Below, one piece after another: positions 769-10,762 of a stretch of 12,392 nt of DNA. The number at the start of each line of letters is the position of its first letter. The first letter of the stretch is position 1. Position numbers and translations under genes: made by a program. Under the pieces are notes generated by a model. It was not told where the DNA came from. It did not search any database and saw nothing but the letters and a program-made list of their open reading frames with translations. The stretch is from Promethearchaeota archaeon (GTDB lineage Archaea > Asgardarchaeota > Odinarchaeia > Odinarchaeales > JBHLKK01): assembly GCA_048939465.1 (NCBI GenBank), contig JBHLPL010000057.1, forward strand, positions 1 to 12,392, read 5' to 3'.

Positions 769-1626
769 ATGGCAAAACGACTTGCGTTCTTCTTGGGTTG
801 TGCTCTGCCCTCAGCGCAGCTGTTTGCTGAAGCATCAACCAGATTGAGCTTGCAGGACTTGGGTGTAGAAATTGTTGATCTGGAAGGTGCTACCTGTTGC
901 CCAGACCCTGAAATCTCAAGAACTCTGGGTCCTGACCTATGGATTCGAATGGCTGCCAGAAATCTAGCGCTGGCTGAAGCTGCTAAAGCGGATACTTTTA
1001 CGGTGTGCAATGGGTGTTGGGAAACACTGAGTGAAGCTCAGGAAATGCTCACTAAAGACTCAAAATTACGAGAGGAAGTCAATCGAGATCTAGAGAAGCT
1101 TGGTCTGCGCTATACTGCGAAATTTAAGATATATCACGCAATAGAGGTCTTCCATGATGTTGTCGGTATTGGTGCAGTAGAAAGCATGATTAAGCGCAAG
1201 TTCAAAGGCATAAAACTAGCAATTCAGCCGGGCTGCCGCATCTACAAAAGACCAGAGAAGAATCTTGTAGAGAAAATGCGGAAGTTGGTTCAGGTTTTGG
1301 GTTGCGAAGTAGTCGATCTCCAGCTTGAAAGGCTTTGCTGTGGCGTTCCTTTAATGTATACCGATACTGATTACTCCTTAATGGAGCGAACTAAAGCTAA
1401 GCTTGATGAAATTAGAACCAAATCTGCGCAAGGTATTGTTACTTTTTGTCCTGCTTGTTATGACCGAATGGAAAAAGGTCAGCTAGAGTTAAACACTAGG
1501 GGGGAAAACTACAATATCCCCGTGTTAAGCTATTCTGAGCTTTTGGCGTTCGCATTAGGTCATGAGCCGGACGATTATGGATCATATTTACATAAATTAG
1601 ACTATGCCAAGGTCTTTATGGGGTGA
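769..1626 (+). CDS. hdrB: Heterodisulfide reductase subunit B-like protein (two CCG domains), divergent
   Basis: AFFLGC, ATCCP, TVCNGC, PGC, LCCG and FCPAC supply all ten non-cubane cluster cysteines; also AARNL and NIPVLSYSELLAFALG. ATG 769 after AGAGGG is preferred over TTG 724, which overlaps the previous gene. Confidence 0.9.
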   Translation: MAKRLAFFLGCALPSAQLFAEASTRLSLQDLGVEIVDLEGATCCPDPEISRTLGPDLWIRMAARNLALAEAAKADTFTVCNGCWETLSEAQEMLTKDSKLREEVNRDLEKLGLRYTAKFKIYHAIEVFHDVVGIGAVESMIKRKFKGIKLAIQPGCRIYKRPEKNLVEKMRKLVQVLGCEVVDLQLERLCCGVPLMYTDTDYSLMERTKAKLDEIRTKSAQGIVTFCPACYDRMEKGQLELNTRGENYNIPVLSYSELLAFALGHEPDDYGSYLHKLDYAKVFMG

Positions 1627-3116
1627 AGTATTTGGCCATAGAAGGACTAATACCGTTGATACTTCTGTTGGTGGGTGCGGCTTTAGCCATACCTGTGAAA
1701 ACTGTTTCTGACAAGGCAATGAAAGGTATGCTCGTTACATTGTTTGCAGCAGCATTAGCCTTCAACTCATGGCTAATTTGGAATGTACTGAGTGGAGTCG
1801 CTGAGAGTTATGTAGTGAATGTGTTTGTGGCAAATGGGGCTTCGCTCTTTATTAGCGAAATAATCTTGCTCATTGGTCTCATGTCTCTTTTATATTCTAT
1901 CAAGTTTATGACCGAGGCTCCCCTGAAAACCGGCCTATTCTATGGCGCATTTTCGCTTCTAATGGCAGCGCTGATAGGCACGACACTCGCTGTTGAAGTG
2001 ATTGCACTATACGCGTTCCTAGAAACAATGACCGTGACTTCGGCTGTTCTAGTTTTATATGGGCGGGGAGCATTGCGAGCCACAATGATTTACCTCGTGG
2101 CTGCCATCCTGGGTGCCATACTCGTTCTAGTAGGCGTTTTCTTCATGTACAGTTTTGCCGGTACCACACTCATTACACGTGCGCTCGATTTCCAATTTCT
2201 TACTGATTTTCAAAGACTCCTGATATCGTCCCTTTTCTTTGTAGGCTTCGGGATAAAGGCTGGGATCATACCCTTTGGTTTGCTCTGGGTTCCACCATCG
2301 TATAGTGCTGCCCCGACTCCTATCACCGTGGTTTTAACGGGCATGATAGCAAATGTGGCCATATTCACAATGGCAAAAACGATCTATATCTTTTATCCCC
2401 TTCTAGGCCAGGACGTTTTTACCCTCACAGTATCTAGCATTGGCATCGCAAGCATTCTGGTGGGCGGAATTCTGGCATTCCTCCAAAGCGACATAAAGAA
2501 GTTGCTGGCATATAGTAGTATTTCCCATTATGGATATATCGTTCTCAGTTTGGGTTTGGGAATTGTAAGCTCAGATGCAGGTCTTGCCTTTCTAGGCGTA
2601 GAAGGGGGTTTATTTCATATCCTCAATCATGCTATCTTCAAGAGCCTTCTCTTTCTTGCCATAGGAAACATCATCTTACGTGTAAACACCAAAAACATGC
2701 GAGAAATGGGCGGCCTGTGGAAAAAAATGCCTGTAACACTAATACTATTCCTAATAGGCGTGTTCTCGACGATCGGCCTTATTCCAGGGTTCAATGGCTT
2801 CCAGAGCAAGGAGATAATTCATGAGGCAATTGTGGTATCCGGTATTTCAGTTGTGGAGGGTTTTTCCATATTTGGAATACTTGCATATATTGGAAGTGGA
2901 ATCACAGTCTTATATCTCGCAAGGGCTGTCTGGGAAATATTCTTGAAGAAACCCAAAAACCCGTCTCGCAATAATAAGGTGAAAGAAGCTCCTATAGCCA
3001 TGTTGGTTCCCATAGCGATTTTGGCCGTACTTTGCATTGCAATTGGTGTTTTTCCTGAAATTATCGCAGGTTTCCTGGATCGTGCTTCCGAAGTTTTAGG
3101 AGGATTGATTAGCTAA
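1623..3116 (+). CDS. Antiporter-like proton-translocating membrane subunit (MrpD/MbhH/NuoM-N/HycC family)
   Basis: 497 aa, strongly hydrophobic. Motifs FLE (TM5 Glu), GIKAG...W (TM7 Lys), KKLLAYSSISHYG, FHILNHAIFKSLLFL, GFNGFQSKE and KEAPIAMLVP. GTGA overlap with the hdrB stop. Confidence 0.92.
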   Translation: MKYLAIEGLIPLILLLVGAALAIPVKTVSDKAMKGMLVTLFAAALAFNSWLIWNVLSGVAESYVVNVFVANGASLFISEIILLIGLMSLLYSIKFMTEAPLKTGLFYGAFSLLMAALIGTTLAVEVIALYAFLETMTVTSAVLVLYGRGALRATMIYLVAAILGAILVLVGVFFMYSFAGTTLITRALDFQFLTDFQRLLISSLFFVGFGIKAGIIPFGLLWVPPSYSAAPTPITVVLTGMIANVAIFTMAKTIYIFYPLLGQDVFTLTVSSIGIASILVGGILAFLQSDIKKLLAYSSISHYGYIVLSLGLGIVSSDAGLAFLGVEGGLFHILNHAIFKSLLFLAIGNIILRVNTKNMREMGGLWKKMPVTLILFLIGVFSTIGLIPGFNGFQSKEIIHEAIVVSGISVVEGFSIFGILAYIGSGITVLYLARAVWEIFLKKPKNPSRNNKVKEAPIAMLVPIAILAVLCIAIGVFPEIIAGFLDRASEVLGGLIS

Positions 3117-3457
3117 TGAATGAGGAAGAGAAAGAATCGAAGTTCGAGGGTAAACGGCCAGGCAAGGTGTGGCGAAAGGATGTGCTACCGTTGACTGTGG
3201 CTATGGTAATCCTGACATTGGGAAGTTTAGGATTCATATTTGCCCGAAATTTGCTGGAGTTTTTCCTGCTTGCTGAACTCGTTGCAGTGGCCACTTTCTT
3301 CATATTGTTTAGCGTACTGATACCATCACTGTTTCCAGAAGAGGTGAAGACTGAAGAGATTTTTACTGGCGGTGCTGCTAAGGCTCCATACATAAGTGAC
3401 GATGAGGTCCTCAGACCTGTCATTCCCTTTTTGGAAGAGGAGGAAGATAAAAGCTAG
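3116..3457 (+). CDS. Small membrane protein (2 predicted TM helices), possibly NuoA/MbhI-related accessory subunit
   Basis: 113 aa, TAATG overlap with the previous gene. Two hydrophobic segments followed by KTEEIFTGG, reminiscent of the NuoA TM1-2 loop/MbhI loop, and an acidic C-terminus. Confidence 0.6.
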   Translation: MNEEEKESKFEGKRPGKVWRKDVLPLTVAMVILTLGSLGFIFARNLLEFFLLAELVAVATFFILFSVLIPSLFPEEVKTEEIFTGGAAKAPYISDDEVLRPVIPFLEEEEDKS

Positions 3458-3469
3458 GATGAATAGAAG

Positions 3470-5209
3470 ATGTCCAAAAGGAAAAGAAAGACTAGAAGAC
3501 GCGGTATAGCAGTCGGTATCTTGAATGAATTGAAAAAAATCCTCGGCAAGGATTATTTGGAAGAGTATTCAAGAGGTCAAAATAGAATATATGTGCGAAC
3601 CACATCTGATCATATTGCCGGTATTGTTGAATTCATGTTAAAGAAGGATGCTAGGCTTGCTCACATCACCACGTCTGACTTAGGTCTCCGCGGATTTGAC
3701 GTCCTATATCATTATGCACTAGATCATATTGAGCAAAACCTGCACATAGTCATAAAAGTGGGGGTGGAGAGAGACAAGCCTGAATTACCATCAGTGACTC
3801 CAATAACTTGGCAGGCATCCTATGCAGAGAGAGAGAACATGGATCTAATGGGGGTGAAATTCCTAAATCACCCTGATCCGCGACATTTATTCCTGCCCTA
3901 TGAATGGCCAGAGAAAGTAGAAGGCGGAAAGTTTGATGAGAATCAAGCAGTTGGAAGAACCGATGTTTCAAAAGAAGAAATTCGTGAAAGTGCCGGCAAA
4001 TGGGTCCCGCTCTCTATTACTCCGAAGGATGCCAAGCTCACGTTAATACCAATCGGCCCCTATCATCCAATGCTCATTGAAAGCGAGTATTTCAGGTTAA
4101 AAGTGAATGGGGAAGAGGTGGTTGATGCTGATCTGAAGCTGGGCTTTAACCACAGAGGCATAATGAAATTGGCTGAAGAAAGAACATTCTGGAGAGATAT
4201 ATACCTAGTTGAGAGAACCTGTGGAATCTGCAATGCAACACACTCAACAGCGTACTGTACTGCTGTAGAAGAAATAATGGGGGCAGACCTCCCCGATAGG
4301 GCTAGGTACATCCGAACCCTGATACTGGAGCTTGAACGTCTTCATAGCCATCTCTTGTGGTTCGGGGTTGCTGGAGACCTGATAGGCTTCAAAACACTAT
4401 TCATGTGGGCCTGGCGAGATCGTGAACATGTCTTAGATATTTTTGAAACCATTACAGGCGGTCGTGTCTATCACTGTATGAATGTGATTGGCGGTGTTAA
4501 GCACGATATGAAAGAATCTTGGTATCCGAAAATCGAAAAGGGTGTAAGAATAGCCAAAGATGCTGTCTTGAAGTATATCGAAATGGCTTATGACCATCCA
4601 ATTCTGAAGGCTAGAACTGAAGATATTGGAGTCATGTCAACCGCTGCTGCCAGAGACATGGGAGCGGTTGGCCCGACTGCAAGAGGCAGCGATTGGAAGA
4701 TTGACGCACGATGGTCAGATCATCATGCAGCTTACGCTCCGGAATATACCTCATGGGACCCAGTCGTTGAGTCTGGAGGTGACGTGTGGGCAAGGGTTGT
4801 TGTAAGGCTGAAAGAAATGCTTGTTTCTGCGGAGCTTTGTGATCAGTGTCTGGATGCATTGAAACGTACTGGGGGACCGATCACATCGGAATTGGATTAC
4901 ATTCCTGAGGGTGAAGGAATAGCCAAAACAGAGGCACCTCGGGGGGAATTGTACTATTATGTGGTTTCGGATGGAACTGCAGTGCCTCAAACAGTAAGAA
5001 TCAGAACTCCCAGCTATCGAAATGACGCCTGTCTTCCTTTAATGGTCAAAGGCTATACGCTGGCGGATGCTCCAATCATCATTGGAAGCATAGACCCTTG
5101 CTTCTCTTGCTCAGACAGAATGGTAGTTATAGAAGATGAGAAGACAGGGAACATCAAAAGAGACTTACTGGGAAATCTCGTCAAGAGGTTCAATGAGAGA
5201 AGGATGTGA
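3470..5209 (+). CDS. Group 4 [NiFe]-hydrogenase large subunit 1, fused NuoC+NuoD (HycE-type architecture)
   Basis: NuoC-like N-terminus (ERENMDLMGVKFLNHP), GPYHP, HRG, L1 ERTCGICNATH (4211-4243), EAPRGE, RTPS, L2 DPCFSCSDR (5093-5119) followed by a 29-aa C-terminal extension. Confidence 0.95.
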   Translation: MSKRKRKTRRRGIAVGILNELKKILGKDYLEEYSRGQNRIYVRTTSDHIAGIVEFMLKKDARLAHITTSDLGLRGFDVLYHYALDHIEQNLHIVIKVGVERDKPELPSVTPITWQASYAERENMDLMGVKFLNHPDPRHLFLPYEWPEKVEGGKFDENQAVGRTDVSKEEIRESAGKWVPLSITPKDAKLTLIPIGPYHPMLIESEYFRLKVNGEEVVDADLKLGFNHRGIMKLAEERTFWRDIYLVERTCGICNATHSTAYCTAVEEIMGADLPDRARYIRTLILELERLHSHLLWFGVAGDLIGFKTLFMWAWRDREHVLDIFETITGGRVYHCMNVIGGVKHDMKESWYPKIEKGVRIAKDAVLKYIEMAYDHPILKARTEDIGVMSTAAARDMGAVGPTARGSDWKIDARWSDHHAAYAPEYTSWDPVVESGGDVWARVVVRLKEMLVSAELCDQCLDALKRTGGPITSELDYIPEGEGIAKTEAPRGELYYYVVSDGTAVPQTVRIRTPSYRNDACLPLMVKGYTLADAPIIIGSIDPCFSCSDRMVVIEDEKTGNIKRDLLGNLVKRFNERRM

Positions 5210-6321
5210 GAAAAATGCCTGTGATGATCTTATTAACGATAGCTGCTTGCATAGTTATACCTATTGTTGCATTCTTTGGCGGAGTTCTATGCTGGTTTGC
5301 CATTAGAAAGTTTACTGCTAGGATGCAGGCCAGATTAGGACCTTTGTTGTCTGTCCCGAAACCACTAAGACCTGTAGTCGGTTCCACACGTATACTTCAG
5401 CCTTTCTGGGATATCTTGAAGCTTTTTTATAAAGAAAGCGTAATACCTGCAACTGCCAGAAAGAGACTGTTTGTCACAATGCCCTACGTCGCTTTGATCT
5501 GCACTATTTTGGTCACGTGGTTTATTCCGATAGCTGGGGTATCTCCCTTTGATCAGTTCTCGTTCAGTTTGCTGGTTGTTATGTACCTAATGGTTGTGGT
5601 TCCTCTGGCGTTTGTGGTCGGTGGTGTTGCTAGTTCTTCTCCGTGGGGTGTGCTAGGGAGTTCGAGGGAGGTCAAACTGGTTTTGGCCTATGAAATTCCC
5701 TTTGTGCTAGGTGTGTTTTCAGTTGCGCTGATGGCAGGCTTTCCTGCCGCCAGTGGCGATCTTTTGCCTAGTCTTCCCGGAACACTCTCTCTGGCTGAGT
5801 TGGTAGTCTTTCAGACCGCGCATCAGCTGAACTTTTTTGGAGTTCTGCTGCCAGCATGGTTCATCATCCTCAATCCGTTCTCTGCAGCTGCGGTCTTCCT
5901 TAGCTTAATTGGGAAAATTGGACTGAAACCTATGGATATTTCAGACGCAGAAGTTGAAATAGTGGCTGGAGCTTACACTGAATATAGCGGGAAGCTACTA
6001 GGAATCCACGAAATGGTGCACACATTCCTACTGTTCATAACAACGACACTGTTCGTGGATCTCTTTCTCGGGGGAGGTGCAGTTCGCGTACCATTCTTTG
6101 GAATACCCTCATTAGTGTGGTCCATAATCGTTTACGCAATAATGATGGTGATAACTCTTCTTGTCCTGTCAATTGTAAATACGGCAAATCCTAGGTTTAG
6201 AATCGACCAAGCCTTCAAATGGTATCTGAAGCTTCCTCTGGCATTGGCAATAATTGGGCTGGCTTGGACCTACATTTTTGCCAGCTCTATGATTAACGTT
6301 CCTGGTATAGGTATAACATAG
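5206..6321 (+). CDS. NuoH/HycD/MbhM-like membrane anchor subunit 1
   Basis: ARMQARLGP, LQPFWDILKLFYKE, SREVKLVLAYE, DISDAEVEIVAGAYTEYSG, PRFRIDQ. GTG 5206 overlaps the upstream stop; ATG 5215 is an alternative start. Confidence 0.93.
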   Translation: MRKMPVMILLTIAACIVIPIVAFFGGVLCWFAIRKFTARMQARLGPLLSVPKPLRPVVGSTRILQPFWDILKLFYKESVIPATARKRLFVTMPYVALICTILVTWFIPIAGVSPFDQFSFSLLVVMYLMVVVPLAFVVGGVASSSPWGVLGSSREVKLVLAYEIPFVLGVFSVALMAGFPAASGDLLPSLPGTLSLAELVVFQTAHQLNFFGVLLPAWFIILNPFSAAAVFLSLIGKIGLKPMDISDAEVEIVAGAYTEYSGKLLGIHEMVHTFLLFITTTLFVDLFLGGGAVRVPFFGIPSLVWSIIVYAIMMVITLLVLSIVNTANPRFRIDQAFKWYLKLPLALAIIGLAWTYIFASSMINVPGIGIT

Positions 6322-6333
6322 GAGAAATGAATA

Positions 6334-6945
6334 ATGGTTAAAGGAAAACTCAAGCTTCTGAAGGAGGCAATCAAGAGCCTGTTTAATCCGGTCACCATAG
6401 GCTATCCTGCCGGAGACCCCGACCTGGATTATGCAGAACCACACTTTGGGACAGAATCCAAATACAGCACCGTAGCTGAAGAACTCCGTGGCAAACATAA
6501 ATGGGATCCTGAGAAGTGCACTGGCTGCGGAGCTTGCAGTTCCTGTTGTAGTAGTCTCTGCCTTCTTTACGAAGACAGGGATGATGGAAAACGTCATCTC
6601 TGGGTCCATCTAGGTAGATGTATTTTCTGTGGTCGATGTGAGTACGTATGTCCTGATGATGCCCTTGACTTGACACCCGAATTTGAACTAAACTATGAAG
6701 GAGACAAAGAGAGCGAAGAATCATTTGTTAGGCATGAGGTAGAACTCGAGGTATGCAGCAATTGTGGACACTATGTTGCTCCAAAGCTGCAAATTGAGAG
6801 ATACTCGCAAAAAGTTCTGGATGATATTCATCCTGCTGTCAAGGATGCAGTCAAAGAGGACTTGGAGAAGATTTCTAAGCTCTGTGTGGACTGCAGAAGA
6901 AAGCTTGCTTATGAGCAAAATCTTCACACTCGGAAATACTACTGA
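6334..6945 (+). CDS. NuoI/HycF-like 2x[4Fe-4S] subunit with extra C-terminal four-Cys site
   Basis: TIGYP...LRG, CTGCGACSSCC, CIFCGRCEYVCP, plus CSNC and CVDCRR. GGAG upstream. Confidence 0.92.
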   Translation: MVKGKLKLLKEAIKSLFNPVTIGYPAGDPDLDYAEPHFGTESKYSTVAEELRGKHKWDPEKCTGCGACSSCCSSLCLLYEDRDDGKRHLWVHLGRCIFCGRCEYVCPDDALDLTPEFELNYEGDKESEESFVRHEVELEVCSNCGHYVAPKLQIERYSQKVLDDIHPAVKDAVKEDLEKISKLCVDCRRKLAYEQNLHTRKYY

Positions 6946-6956
6946 AGGAGGATGGA

Positions 6957-7403
6957 ATGATGGGTCTAAAACAGAAAGCAAGAGCTTACTCACCATGGGT
7001 ATTCCACGCACACTGCGGTGGATGCAACGGCTGTGATATAGAAATAGCTGCGCTTTTTAACCCGAGATTTGATGTAGAGAGGTTTGGTATTCAACTCAAA
7101 AATAATCCCCGGCATGCAGACATACTAGTTGTAGATGGTATACTTCCAAAACAAACAGCCTACTTCCTAAAACGTGTGTATAATCAGACTCCTGACCCCA
7201 AAGCTGTAGTTGCAGTAGGTGCTTGTGCAATTACCGGTGGGGTATTTGCTAGTGATGATGAAACTAGGCCTAATTACTCCCAAGCAGGACCTACTGACAG
7301 GGTACTTCCAGTTGATGTTTATGTTCCGGGTTGTCCGCCGAAGCCCGAAGCAATAATAGAAGGCATAGTACGAGCGATAATAGCATTGAGTAAGAAAAAA
7401 TGA
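6957..7403 (+). CDS. Group 4 [NiFe]-hydrogenase small subunit 1 (NuoB/HycG-like)
   Basis: HycG-type CGGCNGCDIE, ERFG, PRHAD, GAC, VPGCPP. GGAGG at 6947-6951. Confidence 0.95.
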   Translation: MMGLKQKARAYSPWVFHAHCGGCNGCDIEIAALFNPRFDVERFGIQLKNNPRHADILVVDGILPKQTAYFLKRVYNQTPDPKAVVAVGACAITGGVFASDDETRPNYSQAGPTDRVLPVDVYVPGCPPKPEAIIEGIVRAIIALSKKK

Positions 7404-7525: not shown

Positions 7526-8140
7526 ATGCATCTCAATTTGAAGGAGGGTGAATACCTAATTAGATTTGCAAGAAAGAGTATAGAAACCTATTTGACAACC
7601 GGAGAAAGACTAAAGACCCCCGAAGATGCCCCGAAGATACTCTACGAAAAACGCGGTGTATTCGTTACTCTCCAGAGAATCCTTGAAGATGAGAAACGAC
7701 TCAGAGGTTGCATAGGTTTTATTGTCCCTCAATATTCGCTTATCGAAGCCACGTCTCACTCTTCCATCAGTGCGGCCGTAGATGACCCGAGGTTTCCACC
7801 CGTGGAATTTGATGAGTTGAAAAGAATCGCAATTGAAGTAAGTGTTCTGACTCCTGCCCAACTGGTGAAGATCAGTAGGCCTGAAGACTACCTATCGAAA
7901 ATAAAGGTCGGTCGTGATGGTCTAATTGCAAAGCTCGGGTGGAAAACCGGAGTGTTACTACCTCAGGTACCGGTAGAATATGGCTGGAATGAGGAGAAAT
8001 TTATGAGGCAAACATGCATAAAGGCGTTTTTGCCGCAGGATGCATGGAAAGAAGACGGTTTTGAATTATATTCCTTTCAGTCCCAAATCTTCGAGGAGAA
8101 ATTCCCTAACGGAGAAGTGGAAGAACGCTTCATAACTTAG
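7526..8140 (+). CDS. AMMECR1-domain protein (archaeal type)
   Basis: RGVFVTL, LRGCIG, AAVDDPRFPPV, EVSVLT, GRDGLI, LLPQVPVEYGW. ATG 7526 follows GAGG and is preferred over GTG 7514. Confidence 0.93.
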   Translation: MHLNLKEGEYLIRFARKSIETYLTTGERLKTPEDAPKILYEKRGVFVTLQRILEDEKRLRGCIGFIVPQYSLIEATSHSSISAAVDDPRFPPVEFDELKRIAIEVSVLTPAQLVKISRPEDYLSKIKVGRDGLIAKLGWKTGVLLPQVPVEYGWNEEKFMRQTCIKAFLPQDAWKEDGFELYSFQSQIFEEKFPNGEVEERFIT

Positions 8141-8165
8141 AATGAATTCTACCGAAATAATAGTT

Positions 8166-8180
8166 GAAAAATCTTAAATA
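8166..8180 (+). promoter_or_regulatory. Archaeal BRE + TATA box for module 2
   Basis: GAAAAAT immediately followed by CTTAAATA, 60 nt upstream of ATG 8240, in a 99-nt AT-rich intergenic gap. Confidence 0.6.
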
Positions 8181-8239
8181 TTAGTGGTAGATATTACTGT
8201 TTGCTTCGGGCCTCGTAAATGTGAAAGGGGCGAGTAGAA

Positions 8240-8566
8240 ATGAGTTTGATACTTGCTGTGCCTATTGCGTTCATAATATGTCTGATAGCAGTCGGATTTA
8301 TTTATCTTCTCGGAAGAAAAATGGCTCCTCCAAGCAGGAAGAAGGGTGAAGCTGTGTTAACGTATGCTTGCGGCGAAGACATAGATCAAGAGAAAATCCA
8401 GTTCAAGGTAAACTGGCTTTACTATGCGATCTACTTCGTCATCTTCGACATAATTGCATTTACGCTTTCTCTATCCATTCAGCTTGGTGTACTCGAATCG
8501 GTCCTTATGGCGGTTACGTACTCATTCGTAGCACTCGTGGCAATACTAGTACTCCTAAGACGATAG
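8240..8566 (+). CDS. NuoA/FpoA-like 3-TM membrane subunit
   Basis: TM1, loop TYACGE, then YYAIYFVIFDII and a third hydrophobic helix; 108 aa. Confidence 0.85.
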   Translation: MSLILAVPIAFIICLIAVGFIYLLGRKMAPPSRKKGEAVLTYACGEDIDQEKIQFKVNWLYYAIYFVIFDIIAFTLSLSIQLGVLESVLMAVTYSFVALVAILVLLRR

Positions 8567-8579
8567 AGGTGAATCAATA

Positions 8580-9032
8580 ATGGGATTATTAAAAAGGCTG
8601 GTTGACTGGTCAAGGCGCAAATCACCCTGGCTTCTCCACTTCAACTCTGGAAGCTGTAATTGCTGTGATATTGAGATTTTGGCATCTTTAATGCCCAGAT
8701 TTGACCTAGAACGATTTGGAGTTCTTCTTAAAGGCAGTCCGAGACATGCGGACGTACTTGTATGCACAGGTCCTGTTACGTTACAACAAGAAAAACGCTT
8801 AAGGAGGATCTATGAACAAACACCGGCCCCTAAGTTCGTTATGGTGGTAGGAACGTGTGGAAGTACAGGAGGAGTCTTCAGAGGCTGTTATCATACTCAC
8901 AAAGGTATTGATAATATTATTCCGGTCGATGTCTATGTTCCCGGCTGCCCTCCAAGACCTGAGTCTATACTGTTTGGGGCCGTGAAACTTCTTCAGAAAC
9001 TAGAAGCAGTTCAAAAAGGTGAAAAAGCATGA
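8580..9032 (+). CDS. Group 4 [NiFe]-hydrogenase small subunit 2 (NuoB/MbhJ-like)
   Basis: SPW, GSCNCCDIE, ERFG, SPRHAD, TGPVT, GTC, VPGCPPRPE. Confidence 0.95.
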   Translation: MGLLKRLVDWSRRKSPWLLHFNSGSCNCCDIEILASLMPRFDLERFGVLLKGSPRHADVLVCTGPVTLQQEKRLRRIYEQTPAPKFVMVVGTCGSTGGVFRGCYHTHKGIDNIIPVDVYVPGCPPRPESILFGAVKLLQKLEAVQKGEKA

Positions 9033-10762
9033 CTGTAGAAACTGAAATGGGTGAGGAAGTACTTCTAAAAGAATTCCCTCAAGAGTGGGAAATTGTCCAA
9101 TCGCTGCGGGAGGCACTGGGAGATAAATTTGTGGCCAGCAAAATTCCGCGGAAGCGCAGAGTCTACGTCTCGGTTACTGAGGAAGCCCATCGTGAAGCCG
9201 CCAAACAACTCAAGGCAATGGGTATATGGTATACTCCCACCATCGTTGCTTTGGATCTCAAGGATAAATTTGAAGTCCTCTTCCAGTTTTTTGATAAAGA
9301 GAGAAATGTACATATTGCAATAAGAACTCCGGTTTCGAAAGATAAGCCTGAGCTGGAAACGATAACGGATCTCTTTCCCGGAACCATATTCTATGAGCGT
9401 GAAGTTCATGACTTATTTGGGATTGTTTTCAGAAACCATCCCAATTTAGTGAAACTGCTACTGGCAGATACTTGGCCTGCAGACGAATACCCTCTAAGAA
9501 AGGATTGGAAACCCTCGGCTAAGAAAGTCAAGTCCCGAAGAAAAATACCTCTGGTTACAGCGGGAGAATTCCTTATTGAAGTTGGGCCTCAGACTCCAAC
9601 GCTGAAAGAACCAATGAACTTCGAAGTCATTGCAGACGGAGAAGTTGTGGTTGATATAATTCCTCACTTGGAGTATAACCACCGAGGTATTGAAAAGGCC
9701 ATGGAGCAACGGACTTTCACCCAAGGAATTTACCTTAGTGAACGCGTCTGCGGTATATGCAGTCAACCTCACGCATTCACATTCTGTAGTGCTGTTGAGA
9801 GGTTGCTGGACGTCGATGTACCAAGAAGAGGACAGTACATCAGAACTATGGTTTATGAGATGAACAGAATCCACAGCCACCTTTTGTGGGTAGGCGTTGC
9901 TGCACATCTGATTGGCTGGGATACCTTATTCATGTATACATGGCGTGACCGTGAGGTTATTTTGGATATGACAGAGCTTATTACCGGTGGCCGCTTAACT
10001 GGTGCAATAAACACGATAGGCGGAGCCAGAAGAGACATAAATGACGATCAAATACACAAGCTTCGCAAGGGCTTAGATGTCCTGGAAGAACGTACAAGAG
10101 CGTACAAGAAAATTGCTCTAAATGAAGATACACTGATAAAAAGATGTCTTGGCGTAGGCATTATGAAGCCTGAGCTAGCCAGGAACTTTGCTGCGGTTGG
10201 ACCGACCATCAGGGGATCCGGAATAAAAGCTGATCTTCGTTGGGACGATCCGGAACATGGGTGTTATGATGAGCTTTCAGATGTATTCACTCCTGCAACA
10301 TCGGACTTATGTGACGTTGCTGGAAGGCTAATCGTTCGTGTAGATGAAACATTAGAATCAGTCAACATGATTCGCTGGATCCTTGACCATTTGCCAAGTG
10401 GACCAGTGAGAAAAAGAGTGCCCAGAAGGGTTCCAAGGAATGAGGCTGTCGGAAGAACTGAAGCTCCTCGAGGGGAAGTTTATTATTACATGATGTCTAA
10501 TAACACGGACAAGCCTGAACGTGTAAAGATAAAAACACCGACGATAGCAAACATTCCTGCGTTCGTTGAATCCACAAAGGGACTTTACATTGCAGACTTC
10601 GTGATCAACTTTGGCAGTATTGATCCATGCATCGCGTGTACCTGCAGAACAACAATTACCGATATAAGCCACCCGAGAAATCCAAAGCGACGTGTTATGT
10701 CGCATGAGGAATTGAGGAAGTATGGCATAGACTGGTATGAAGACCGAAAATGGAGGAAATAA
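9029..10762 (+). CDS. Group 4 [NiFe]-hydrogenase large subunit 2, fused NuoC+NuoD
   Basis: EREVHDLFGIVFRNHP, YPLRKD, HRGIEK, L1 ERVCGICSQPH (9740-9772), EAPRGE, KTPT, L2 DPCIACTCR (10622-10648) plus a 37-aa extension. ATGA overlap with the small subunit gene. Confidence 0.95.
   Translation: MTVETEMGEEVLLKEFPQEWEIVQSLREALGDKFVASKIPRKRRVYVSVTEEAHREAAKQLKAMGIWYTPTIVALDLKDKFEVLFQFFDKERNVHIAIRTPVSKDKPELETITDLFPGTIFYEREVHDLFGIVFRNHPNLVKLLLADTWPADEYPLRKDWKPSAKKVKSRRKIPLVTAGEFLIEVGPQTPTLKEPMNFEVIADGEVVVDIIPHLEYNHRGIEKAMEQRTFTQGIYLSERVCGICSQPHAFTFCSAVERLLDVDVPRRGQYIRTMVYEMNRIHSHLLWVGVAAHLIGWDTLFMYTWRDREVILDMTELITGGRLTGAINTIGGARRDINDDQIHKLRKGLDVLEERTRAYKKIALNEDTLIKRCLGVGIMKPELARNFAAVGPTIRGSGIKADLRWDDPEHGCYDELSDVFTPATSDLCDVAGRLIVRVDETLESVNMIRWILDHLPSGPVRKRVPRRVPRNEAVGRTEAPRGEVYYYMMSNNTDKPERVKIKTPTIANIPAFVESTKGLYIADFVINFGSIDPCIACTCRTTITDISHPRNPKRRVMSHEELRKYGIDWYEDRKWRK

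Follow-up and report, generated by a model that had tools for sequence, protein, structure and literature searches.

Here we describe an HdrB-like gene at positions 769 to 1626 (plus strand) of a 12.4-kb contig, JBHLPL010000057.1, from a metagenome-assembled genome (MAG) of a Promethearchaeota archaeon (1.96 Mb, 91 % complete). The whole contig, C109 in our numbering, is the window of this analysis. HdrB is the catalytic subunit of the methanogen heterodisulfide reductase (Hdr), which acts on CoM-S-S-CoB, the mixed disulfide of coenzyme M (CoM) and coenzyme B (CoB). By alignment, we show that the window protein and the clade to which it belongs, termed type A, have throughout replaced the residues with which the methanogen enzyme holds CoM and CoB. 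In our reading, which we consider about as apt to be right as wrong, the product of the gene is the subunit that handles a disulfide in a group-4 [NiFe] hydrogenase, itself membrane-bound and ion-translocating, with the lipoyl disulfide of GcvH2, a paralogue of the glycine-cleavage H protein GcvH, as its most likely substrate. To our knowledge, Hdr-like enzymes are common in anaerobes that do not make methane, and their disulfide substrate has been an open question for decades. GcvH2 offers a concrete candidate partner with predicted contact residues and thus makes this old question directly testable.

Pfam, NCBIfam, the match to a solved structure, a fold model and a tree all place the 285-amino-acid (aa) protein among HdrB-like catalytic subunits. 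PF02754 (CCG) matches it in two stretches (E 7.5e-23), and the five-cysteine motif CXnCCGXmCXXC is complete in both CCG domains. The best solved relatives are the HdrB proteins of M. thermolithotrophicus (5odc_B, E 4.5e-48), M. hungatei and M. marburgensis. A sequence-only reading of this DNA had claimed that all ten cluster cysteines are kept, and indeed Cys 11, 43, 44, 80, 83, 156, 190, 191, 227 and 230 all align as identities with the cluster cysteines of 5odc_B; the intact set suggests that the protein is a competent disulfide reductase. The AlphaFold2 (AF2) model, with a predicted local distance difference test (pLDDT) of 91, superposes on 5odc_B with a template modeling (TM) score of 0.91 and a root-mean-square deviation of 2.1 Å at 32 % identity. 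Second-tier fold matches are LutA (9a6l_A), EtfD (9ojn) and 3kwl, all with TM ≤0.76. An eleventh cysteine, C179 (window positions 1303-1305, in VLGCE), follows the invariant G178 and lies outside the ten cluster ligands.

The substrate pocket is remodeled, as the sequence-only reading had proposed. In 5ODR the CoM sulfonate contacts the backbone NH groups of Gly46 and Gly198, while CoB is bound at its carboxylate by Arg201 and at its phosphate by Arg14 and Arg240 (PMC13261682). We rebuilt this contact mapping from the alignment coordinates of 5ODC_B and confirmed it on the sequences of 7bkb_B, by way of the near-identical methanogen-type protein P0109, and of 9sfi_C, a Methanococcus HdrB in whose numbering R14, G46, G198, R201 and R240 are all present. 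Four of the five published contacts are replaced in the window protein (Arg14 by Ala16, Gly46 by Glu48, Gly198 by Leu195 and Arg201 by Thr198); only the exchange of Arg240 for Lys236 is conservative. The changes fall into motifs that can be followed along the gene. Ala16 lies in the N-terminal motif CALPSAQL (799-822), at the Arg14 site for the CoB phosphate. In CCPDPEI (895-915), Asp46 and Glu48 stand where Ala44 and Gly46 form the CoM-sulfonate site, so that Asp46 is a second acidic residue there. QPGCR (1225-1239) puts Arg157, which adjoins the ligand Cys156, in place of the histidine of HYGCH. The Gly-rich loop CCGAGGGVR has become CCGVPLMY (1336-1359), two residues shorter, with Gly198 and Arg201 lost and Pro194 fixed. 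MEKGQ (1468-1482) replaces FDRGQ and brings Lys236 to the Arg240 site for the CoB phosphate. In the same columns, P0109 and 9sfi_C both carry CCPAPG, HYGCH and CCGAGGGVR. The sequence-only reading had already singled out CCPDPEI, QPGCR and CCGVPL, together with a shorter segment after the second GC motif; all three motifs are where it had placed them, and after GCRIYKRPE one plus five residues, six in all, are missing relative to 5odc_B.

These substitutions are not peculiar to the window protein. We compared the pocket across 39 type-A sequences, 50 hydrogenase-linked sequences of a second kind (type B), three methanogen-type and 18 bacterial-type sequences. The type-A proteins are only about 40 % identical overall, yet Glu48 is conserved in 95 % of them, Arg or Lys157 in 100 % and Pro194 in 100 %; since the substitutions are fixed across sequences this divergent, they are not a product of chance. 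The Arg14 position holds Met, Val or Ala in type A and Arg or Lys in all other groups. The residue after the second-domain ligand cysteine is Arg (54 %) or Lys (46 %) in type A, compared to His in 100 % of the type B, the three methanogen-type and the bacterial-type sequences. Pro194 is invariant in both types A and B. The resulting type-A signature, GC(R/K) instead of GCH, CCP(D/V)PEI and CCG-x-P, has in its core no Arg at the R14 site, Glu after CCPxP and GC(R/K); it would mark a clade that cannot plausibly bind CoM-S-S-CoB.

The tree gives the same division. It comprises 109 rows, computed with a quick IQ-TREE run under LG+C20, with only three methanogen-type rows (P0104, P0109 and P0113) and several rows on long branches. 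A single clade of 71 rows, with a Shimodaira-Hasegawa-like approximate likelihood ratio test (SH-aLRT) support of 100, unites all HdrBs that are hydrogenase-linked, and within it type A, including the window HdrB, is a nested clade of 34 rows (SH-aLRT 99). Outside the hydrogenase-linked clade fall the methanogen-type rows, HdrC-B fusions, a bacterial CCGK type and the three soluble-type paralogues of the host; the phylogeny proposed as a check on the window protein thus separates it from methanogen HdrB, as far as three methanogen-type rows can represent the latter. On contig C56 the host has a soluble Hdr-type cluster (C56:2653-12415, L104), which contains two HdrC-HdrB pairs (HdrB at 3266-4150 and 5535-6434) and continues with large Fe-S/flavoprotein-like open reading frames (7778-9922 and 10415-12415). 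Elsewhere in the host genome, C152 encodes a further HdrB-like protein and C119 a second HdrD-like one.

We scanned 185,579 species genomes with the type-A alignment and obtained 80 loci, to which an exact-protein look-up added three. In all 83 of these loci HdrB adjoins NuoC/NuoD-type [NiFe]-hydrogenase genes, and a homologue of the ferredoxin-like protein Fer4_11 was found in 77, some loci being cut at a contig end. The closest homologues of the window HdrB are 81-83 % identical (in a MAG labeled Hodarchaeota) and 56-63 % identical (in Odinarchaeia), from which the host is placed among the Asgard archaea. Type A is hosted by Odin-, Baldr-, Hermod- and Heimdall/Hod-labeled Asgard archaea, Bathyarchaeia, Culexmicrobium, Methanomethylicia-labeled genomes and Thermoprotei, and its loci share the order Fer4_11, tail, HdrB, then membrane subunits. 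Type B (GCQIPMR, HYGCH, CCGYPSMQ; loci L046-L095, for example L051:8801-12905 and L060:3983-7128) has hdrB between nuoC and nuoD, retains the Arg14 equivalent and the His, and occurs in Bathyarchaeia, Hadarchaeia, Nezhaarchaeales and one Hodarchaeaceae MAG. Antiporter or NuoH homologues often went undetected near type-B clusters in the screen of the 83 loci.

The divergent pocket bears directly on whether the window protein could still be a CoM-S-S-CoB reductase, with coenzymes imported or made by unknown routes. That role has been proposed for Ehd, the corresponding complex of Methanomethylicia (PMC9723716). The closest solved structures are indeed CoB-CoM heterodisulfide reductases, Hdr accepts some substrate analogues (PMC13261682), and one of the 30 other type-A genomes (G171, locus L033) does have McrA. 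However, four of the five contact residues are replaced and acidic residues occupy the sulfonate site; the protein lies outside the methanogen-type rows of the tree and scores 201.6 bits against the TIGR03288 equivalog, below the cut-off of 345.15 (NF041780: 79.8 against a cut-off of 450). Neither McrA (PF02249) nor ComA (PF02679) was found when the 91 %-complete host genome was checked for mcr and CoM biosynthesis, and the remaining 29 type-A genomes have no McrA. We therefore consider this explanation extremely improbable. The earlier proposal of a substrate other than CoM-S-S-CoB gains support from each of these lines, because the contacts are replaced, the clade is separate, the host has no detected McrA, ComA or DsrC, and McrA is rare among type-A genomes. 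The type-A HdrBs of two Methanomethylicia-labeled loci (L030 and L034) have the remodeled pocket and a GcvH gene directly upstream, which argues against a CoM-S-S-CoB role for the Ehd-type complex, at least in these Mcr-less genomes. If the general role of a GcvH carrier proposed further below is true, the published view of Ehd-type complexes as CoM-S-S-CoB reductases would have to be revised.

The context of the gene points to a hydrogenase. Every gene of the window lies on the plus strand. Upstream of hdrB are a four-cluster ferredoxin-like protein of the Fer4_11 family (HybA/DmsB/HycB type by family search; 1-447, its 5′ end cut by the contig end), the presumed electron wire to HdrB, and a 96-aa protein resembling the tail of HdrC (465-755) that is kept in synteny directly upstream of type-A hdrB. 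The latter matches no Pfam or NCBIfam family and contains no cysteine, so that the operon lacks an HdrC partner with two [4Fe-4S] clusters. Downstream, an antiporter-like membrane subunit of NuoM/MrpD type (1623-3116) begins with a GTG that overlaps the hdrB stop (GTGA), followed by a small membrane protein of 113 aa that is conserved in the cluster (3116-3457), a NuoC-fused [NiFe]-hydrogenase large subunit with intact Ni ligands (3470-5209; ERTCGICNATH and DPCFSCSDR), a NuoH-like membrane subunit (5206-6321), a NuoI/HycF-like two-cluster subunit (6334-6945) and a NuoB-like hydrogenase small subunit (6957-7403), the last three identified by Pfam and NCBIfam. Further downstream come AMMECR1 and a second hydrogenase module. 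Thus hdrB is co-located and co-oriented with group-4 large and small subunits, NuoH- and NuoI-like genes and an antiporter-like subunit, and the same module is found in the type-A loci L013-L045. Family searches detected no HdrA-like gene among the window genes; therefore, no flavin-based bifurcation would be expected in this complex. Neither an HdrB1/B2, HdrC1/C2 set nor sulfur transferases (TusA, DsrE) were found among the window genes, and sulfur transferases elsewhere in the genome were not searched for.

Homology with Mbh, formate hydrogenlyase, complex I and HdrABC suggests how such a complex would work. Electrons would pass from the [NiFe] site through the NuoB-like cluster, the NuoI-like clusters and the four clusters of Fer4_11 to the HdrB clusters; the cysteine-free HdrC-like tail would clasp HdrB, and the antiporter- and NuoH-like subunits would couple turnover to ion translocation. 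Gene neighborhood and docking, in turn, suggest that GcvH2 would insert its lipoyl-lysine arm into the former CoB channel, where the heptanoyl chain of CoB enters in methanogens, and that its dithiolane would present both sulfurs to the two noncubane clusters. The CoM pocket, superfluous for such a substrate, would be closed off, with acidic and bulky side chains filling it. The complex would catalyze H2 + lipoyl-GcvH2 ↔ dihydrolipoyl-GcvH2. Textbook potentials are -414 mV for H+/H2 and about -290 mV for lipoamide, from which we compute about -24 kJ/mol in the H2-oxidizing direction. This could suffice for roughly one translocated ion, and the reverse reaction is conceivable at the very low H2 pressure of syntrophy. 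Candidates for closing the cycle are a nearby GlcD-HdrD pair and the soluble Hdr cluster on C56. If true, a lipoyl protein would link hydrogen metabolism to the formation of an ion gradient, and the known reactions of energy-conserving hydrogenases would gain a new kind.

Two lines of evidence, gene neighborhood and docking, make the lipoyl disulfide of GcvH2 the best candidate substrate, with a chance of being correct that we put near even. A GcvH-like gene is present in the fetched DNA of 16 of the 33 type-A loci and within 600 bp of the cluster in 13 of them, compared to a chance expectation, at about 0.6 GcvH-like genes per Mb in an Asgard sample, of about 0.15 in the 242 kb of type-A flank. 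The placement takes at least five arrangements. GcvH is directly upstream of Fer4_11 in Culexmicrobium, Methanomethylicia-labeled and Nitrososphaerota-labeled loci; in Bathyarchaeia it directly follows nuoB and precedes glcD-hdrD, or in other members is divergent from the tail gene; it lies 0.8 kb downstream in Thermoprotei and 3-3.7 kb upstream in Odinarchaeia. The lipoyl lysine is kept in all type-A-linked copies, which fall into the subtypes E(T/S)(G/A)KWVG and ESTKATSD. About 2 kb from several type-B clusters we also observed a GcvH-like protein of 200-240 aa whose lipoyl-lysine site reads ETWMFMFD, with no lysine (L051:14977, L054:6291 and 6923, L074:15392, L082:5884, L085, L092:7378 and L093:14960); from its sequence it looks like a "dead" carrier.

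The host genome encodes two GcvH proteins. GcvH1 is canonical and adjoins gcvT, with gcvP and LplA elsewhere in the genome. GcvH2 (C49:13969-14412) is the orthologue of the cluster-linked copies (233 versus 82 bits) and scores just under the NCBIfam GcvH cut-offs. Synteny with an 81 %-identical relative (L016) indicates that contig C49, reversed, abuts the start of the window. By that synteny, a GlcD-HdrD pair would be 2-4.5 kb and GcvH2 about 14 kb upstream of the operon. The pair itself (C49:1866-4432) is an insertion relative to L016, between two conserved genes. Further upstream, Mrp-like small subunits and an antiporter are encoded at C49:8499-10965.

We modeled the complex of HdrB, the 96-aa tail and GcvH2 as three chains with alignments that we had built ourselves, for which the benchmark counts given here hold only roughly. 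The complex scored 0.77, compared to 0.00 for the best of three controls; 58 of 80 solved complexes and 2 of 110 mismatched pairs reach the 0.77 mark. The runs agreed on at least 93 % of contacts, with a partner pLDDT of at least 86. In the model, the interface of HdrB comprises residues 15-16, 196-197, 232, 236-237, 239-240, 243, 274 and 276, that is, former CoB-binding positions including Lys236; GcvH2 would contribute its lipoyl hairpin (residues 73-80, including K74) and the tail its residues 41-49. We found no Protein Data Bank entry containing both Hdr and GcvH chains, which makes it unlikely that the score merely reproduces a known structure. Binding of GcvH2 to HdrB is thus supported by the model, though not shown. 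Of the substrates listed by the sequence-only reading, the lipoyl-type carrier is thus favored by gene neighborhood and complex model.

Several observations weigh against GcvH2 as the substrate. The model contains neither the clusters nor the lipoyl group, and such complex models are known to accept near relatives of a genuine partner as well. The host operon itself lacks GcvH2, and the distance of about 14 kb rests on a contig join deduced from synteny. In a set of 151 Asgard genomes, type-A HdrB is present in far fewer genomes than GcvH2-like genes are. Where type-A HdrB is present in one family (f12), the sole GcvH is a low-scoring one, which lies at 2.4-3 kb from an HdrB of the soluble type; co-occurrence of GcvH2 and type-A HdrB across these genomes therefore does not discriminate, and we dropped it as evidence. 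GcvH-like genes also adjoin other CCG proteins (soluble HdrB, GlcD-HdrD), and in Hermodarchaeota-type loci the adjacent gene encodes a protein of the CoA-disulfide-reductase (CoADR) family, not GcvH. The carrier may thus belong primarily to those other enzymes, and some lineages may use a small thiol as the substrate. CCG proteins are also part of enzymes that reduce no disulfide (SdhE, LutA, GlcF, GlpC).

The soluble-type cases are of interest in themselves. Two Asgard families have a soluble-type HdrB, scoring about 260-273 bits to the type-A profile, with a GcvH-like gene at a distance of 2.4-3 kb (G011:C46, G066:C15, G090:C12, G105:C297, G072:C27, G084:C112, G043:C46, G029:C11, G048:C63 and G018:C74), so the linkage of GcvH and Hdr extends beyond the hydrogenase-bound form. 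Because GcvH2 is widespread, GcvH of family f12 lies beside soluble HdrB, and a CoADR-family gene is the neighbor in Hermod loci, the carrier may serve Hdr-type enzymes generally. We propose, tentatively and as an idea rather more apt to fail than to hold, that Asgard and TACK archaea without methanogenesis generally use lipoate bound to a dedicated GcvH paralogue as their "heterodisulfide", which would shuttle between soluble Hdr-type or GlcD-HdrD enzymes and the membrane-bound, H2-linked HdrB. The type-A pocket, with the CoB arginines lost, the CoM site plugged by acidic residues and GC(R/K), would then be a specific adaptation to a single-arm lipoyl-lysine. The hydrogen and energy metabolism of Asgard archaea feeds into models of eukaryote origins.

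The CoADR-family gene leads to another explanation, in which HdrB would act on a small sulfur compound, for example the disulfide or persulfide of CoA or inorganic polysulfide, and the complex would carry out an H2-driven or H2-evolving sulfur or thiol respiration, functionally like Mbs with NSR of Thermococci. Five type-A loci have a gene of the CoADR/NADH-oxidase family no more than 60 bp from the cluster (L015:16049-17425, L032:16986, L035:16559, L039:16976 and L043:16979), and two type-B loci have one between GcvH and Fer4_11 (L046:2893 and L050:4818); the host has a homologue at C61:9364-10788, and the pocket retains the basic Lys236 and gains Arg157. We nevertheless regard this explanation as unlikely. 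The CoADR-like genes score below the family cut-off (297-353 versus 579 bits), are convergently oriented in the Hermod-type loci and are rarer neighbors than GcvH (5 versus 13 of the 33 type-A loci), and an enzyme of this family could itself act on a lipoyl protein. An assignment of this neighbor as dihydrolipoamide dehydrogenase (Lpd) was dropped, its single-cysteine motif SLCGLPY being that of the CoADR/NADH-oxidase family.

It is also conceivable that the HdrB-like subunit turns over no disulfide at all, its CCG clusters serving electron transfer or an organic-acid or quinone-like acceptor, as in SdhE, LutA, GlcF and GlpC. Below HdrB, the fold comparison matches CCG proteins from enzymes without disulfide chemistry, weaker NCBIfam matches are to SdhE, LdhH and GlcF, the cluster of Culexarchaeia is co-located with SdhA and CdhA (PMC9723716), and a GlcD-HdrD pair is near the window operon. 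True HdrBs are, however, by far the closest in sequence and fold (TM 0.91 versus ≤0.76), both five-cysteine motifs are complete, as in disulfide-cleaving HdrB, and HdrB ends the iron-sulfur wire of an operon with no other catalytic subunit, all of which makes a role without disulfide chemistry quite unlikely in our judgment.

Compared to these, a different protein disulfide or trisulfide carrier, whether of DsrC/TusE type, thioredoxin-like or another small protein, appears highly unlikely to be the substrate. There is precedent in DsrK of DsrMKJOP, which reduces the DsrC trisulfide (PMC10861901), and a DsrC-type carrier had been among the substrates suggested by the sequence-only reading. However, no DsrC gene (PF04358) was found in the host genome, and the DsrC-type carrier was set aside; nor does such a carrier gene recur beside the clusters in the 83 loci, in a screen that covered homologues of the window proteins, GcvH, CoADR-like proteins, GlcD and HdrD. 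DsrMKJOP resembles the complex proposed here in that a membrane-complex-bound CCG protein acts on a sulfur bridge carried by a small protein, a feature that is predicted in our case. It differs in that DsrK has one CCG cluster, is quinol-linked via cytochrome b and uses DsrC.

For a lipoyl carrier there is an experimental precedent. In the sHdr-LbpA system of sulfur oxidizers (Cao et al. 2018, PMC6067878), an Hdr-like CCG enzyme depends on a dedicated lipoate-binding protein, which resembles GcvH without being the H protein of glycine cleavage and whose gene is linked to those of the enzyme. In contrast to the single HdrB on a hydrogenase encoded in the window, sHdr is soluble, consists of HdrA, two HdrB and two HdrC, needs sulfur transferases and oxidizes sulfane sulfur. 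With HdrABC of methanogens (HdrB in PDB 5ODC and 5ODR from M. thermolithotrophicus, 7BKB, 8RVU and 9SFI) the window protein shares the fold, the two CCG domains, the ten cysteines binding two noncubane [4Fe-4S] clusters and an HdrC-like element encoded directly upstream. It departs from HdrABC in the replaced CoM/CoB contacts, the change from GCH to GCR, the shorter Gly-rich loop and the six residues fewer, in an operon without HdrA or the HdrC ferredoxin domain, in its partner, a membrane-bound group-4 hydrogenase, and in a host without detected Mcr. Mbh and Mbs of Pyrococcus furiosus and the formate hydrogenlyase Hyc of E. coli have the same membrane arm, a NuoB/C/D/H/I-type core and a HycB-like multi-cluster protein linking an extra catalytic subunit, with the difference that the extra module in the window is HdrB rather than FdhF or a direct ferredoxin or polysulfide site.

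The nearest relatives of the operon have been described before. Kohtz et al. (2022) reported "HdrB-interacting [NiFe] hydrogenases", namely Ehd of Methanomethylicia, Ehe of Culexarchaeia, Drh and Ehg, noted that Culexarchaeia lack CoM/CoB biosynthesis, and suggested the GcvH of the Ehe cluster as a possible disulfide carrier (PMC9723716). Appler et al. (2024, bioRxiv 10.1101/2024.07.04.601786) reported that in deep Asgard lineages, Odinarchaeia among them, hydrogenases of groups 4l and 4q have a heterodisulfide-reductase domain at their periphery. The window operon has the same module as Ehd/Ehe and the Asgard 4l/4q enzymes (Fe-S protein, HdrC-like protein, HdrB, antiporter, and large and small hydrogenase subunits), and its HdrB falls in one clade with those of the Culexmicrobium clusters (L022, L026 and L031), a placement from which we infer that the operon is of the Ehd/Ehe kind (Asgard group 4l/4q). 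Unlike Ehd/Ehe it includes no GcvH, SdhA, CdhA or HdrA2B2C2, GcvH2 being some 14 kb away. Both the class of HdrB-linked hydrogenases and the idea of a GcvH carrier are thus already published as predictions. Relative to the literature consulted, the present analysis adds the residue-level loss of the coenzyme contacts and a signature for type A, GC(R/K) with Glu48. It also shows how broad and varied the linkage to GcvH is, and it offers a docking model with the lipoyl loop on the remodeled positions.

Two minor observations concern unusual members of the wider set. One type-B locus (L087, DATKLC010000041.1) comes from a MAG labeled Krumholzibacteriaceae (Bacteria) and nests among Bathyarchaeia rows, reflecting either horizontal transfer or a binning error. 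Two Asgard HdrB-like matches (G007:C52:43338-44219 and G135:C47:9181-10014) contain an in-frame stop, in one case TAG and in the other TGA, and could be pseudogenes, cases of recoding or sequencing errors.

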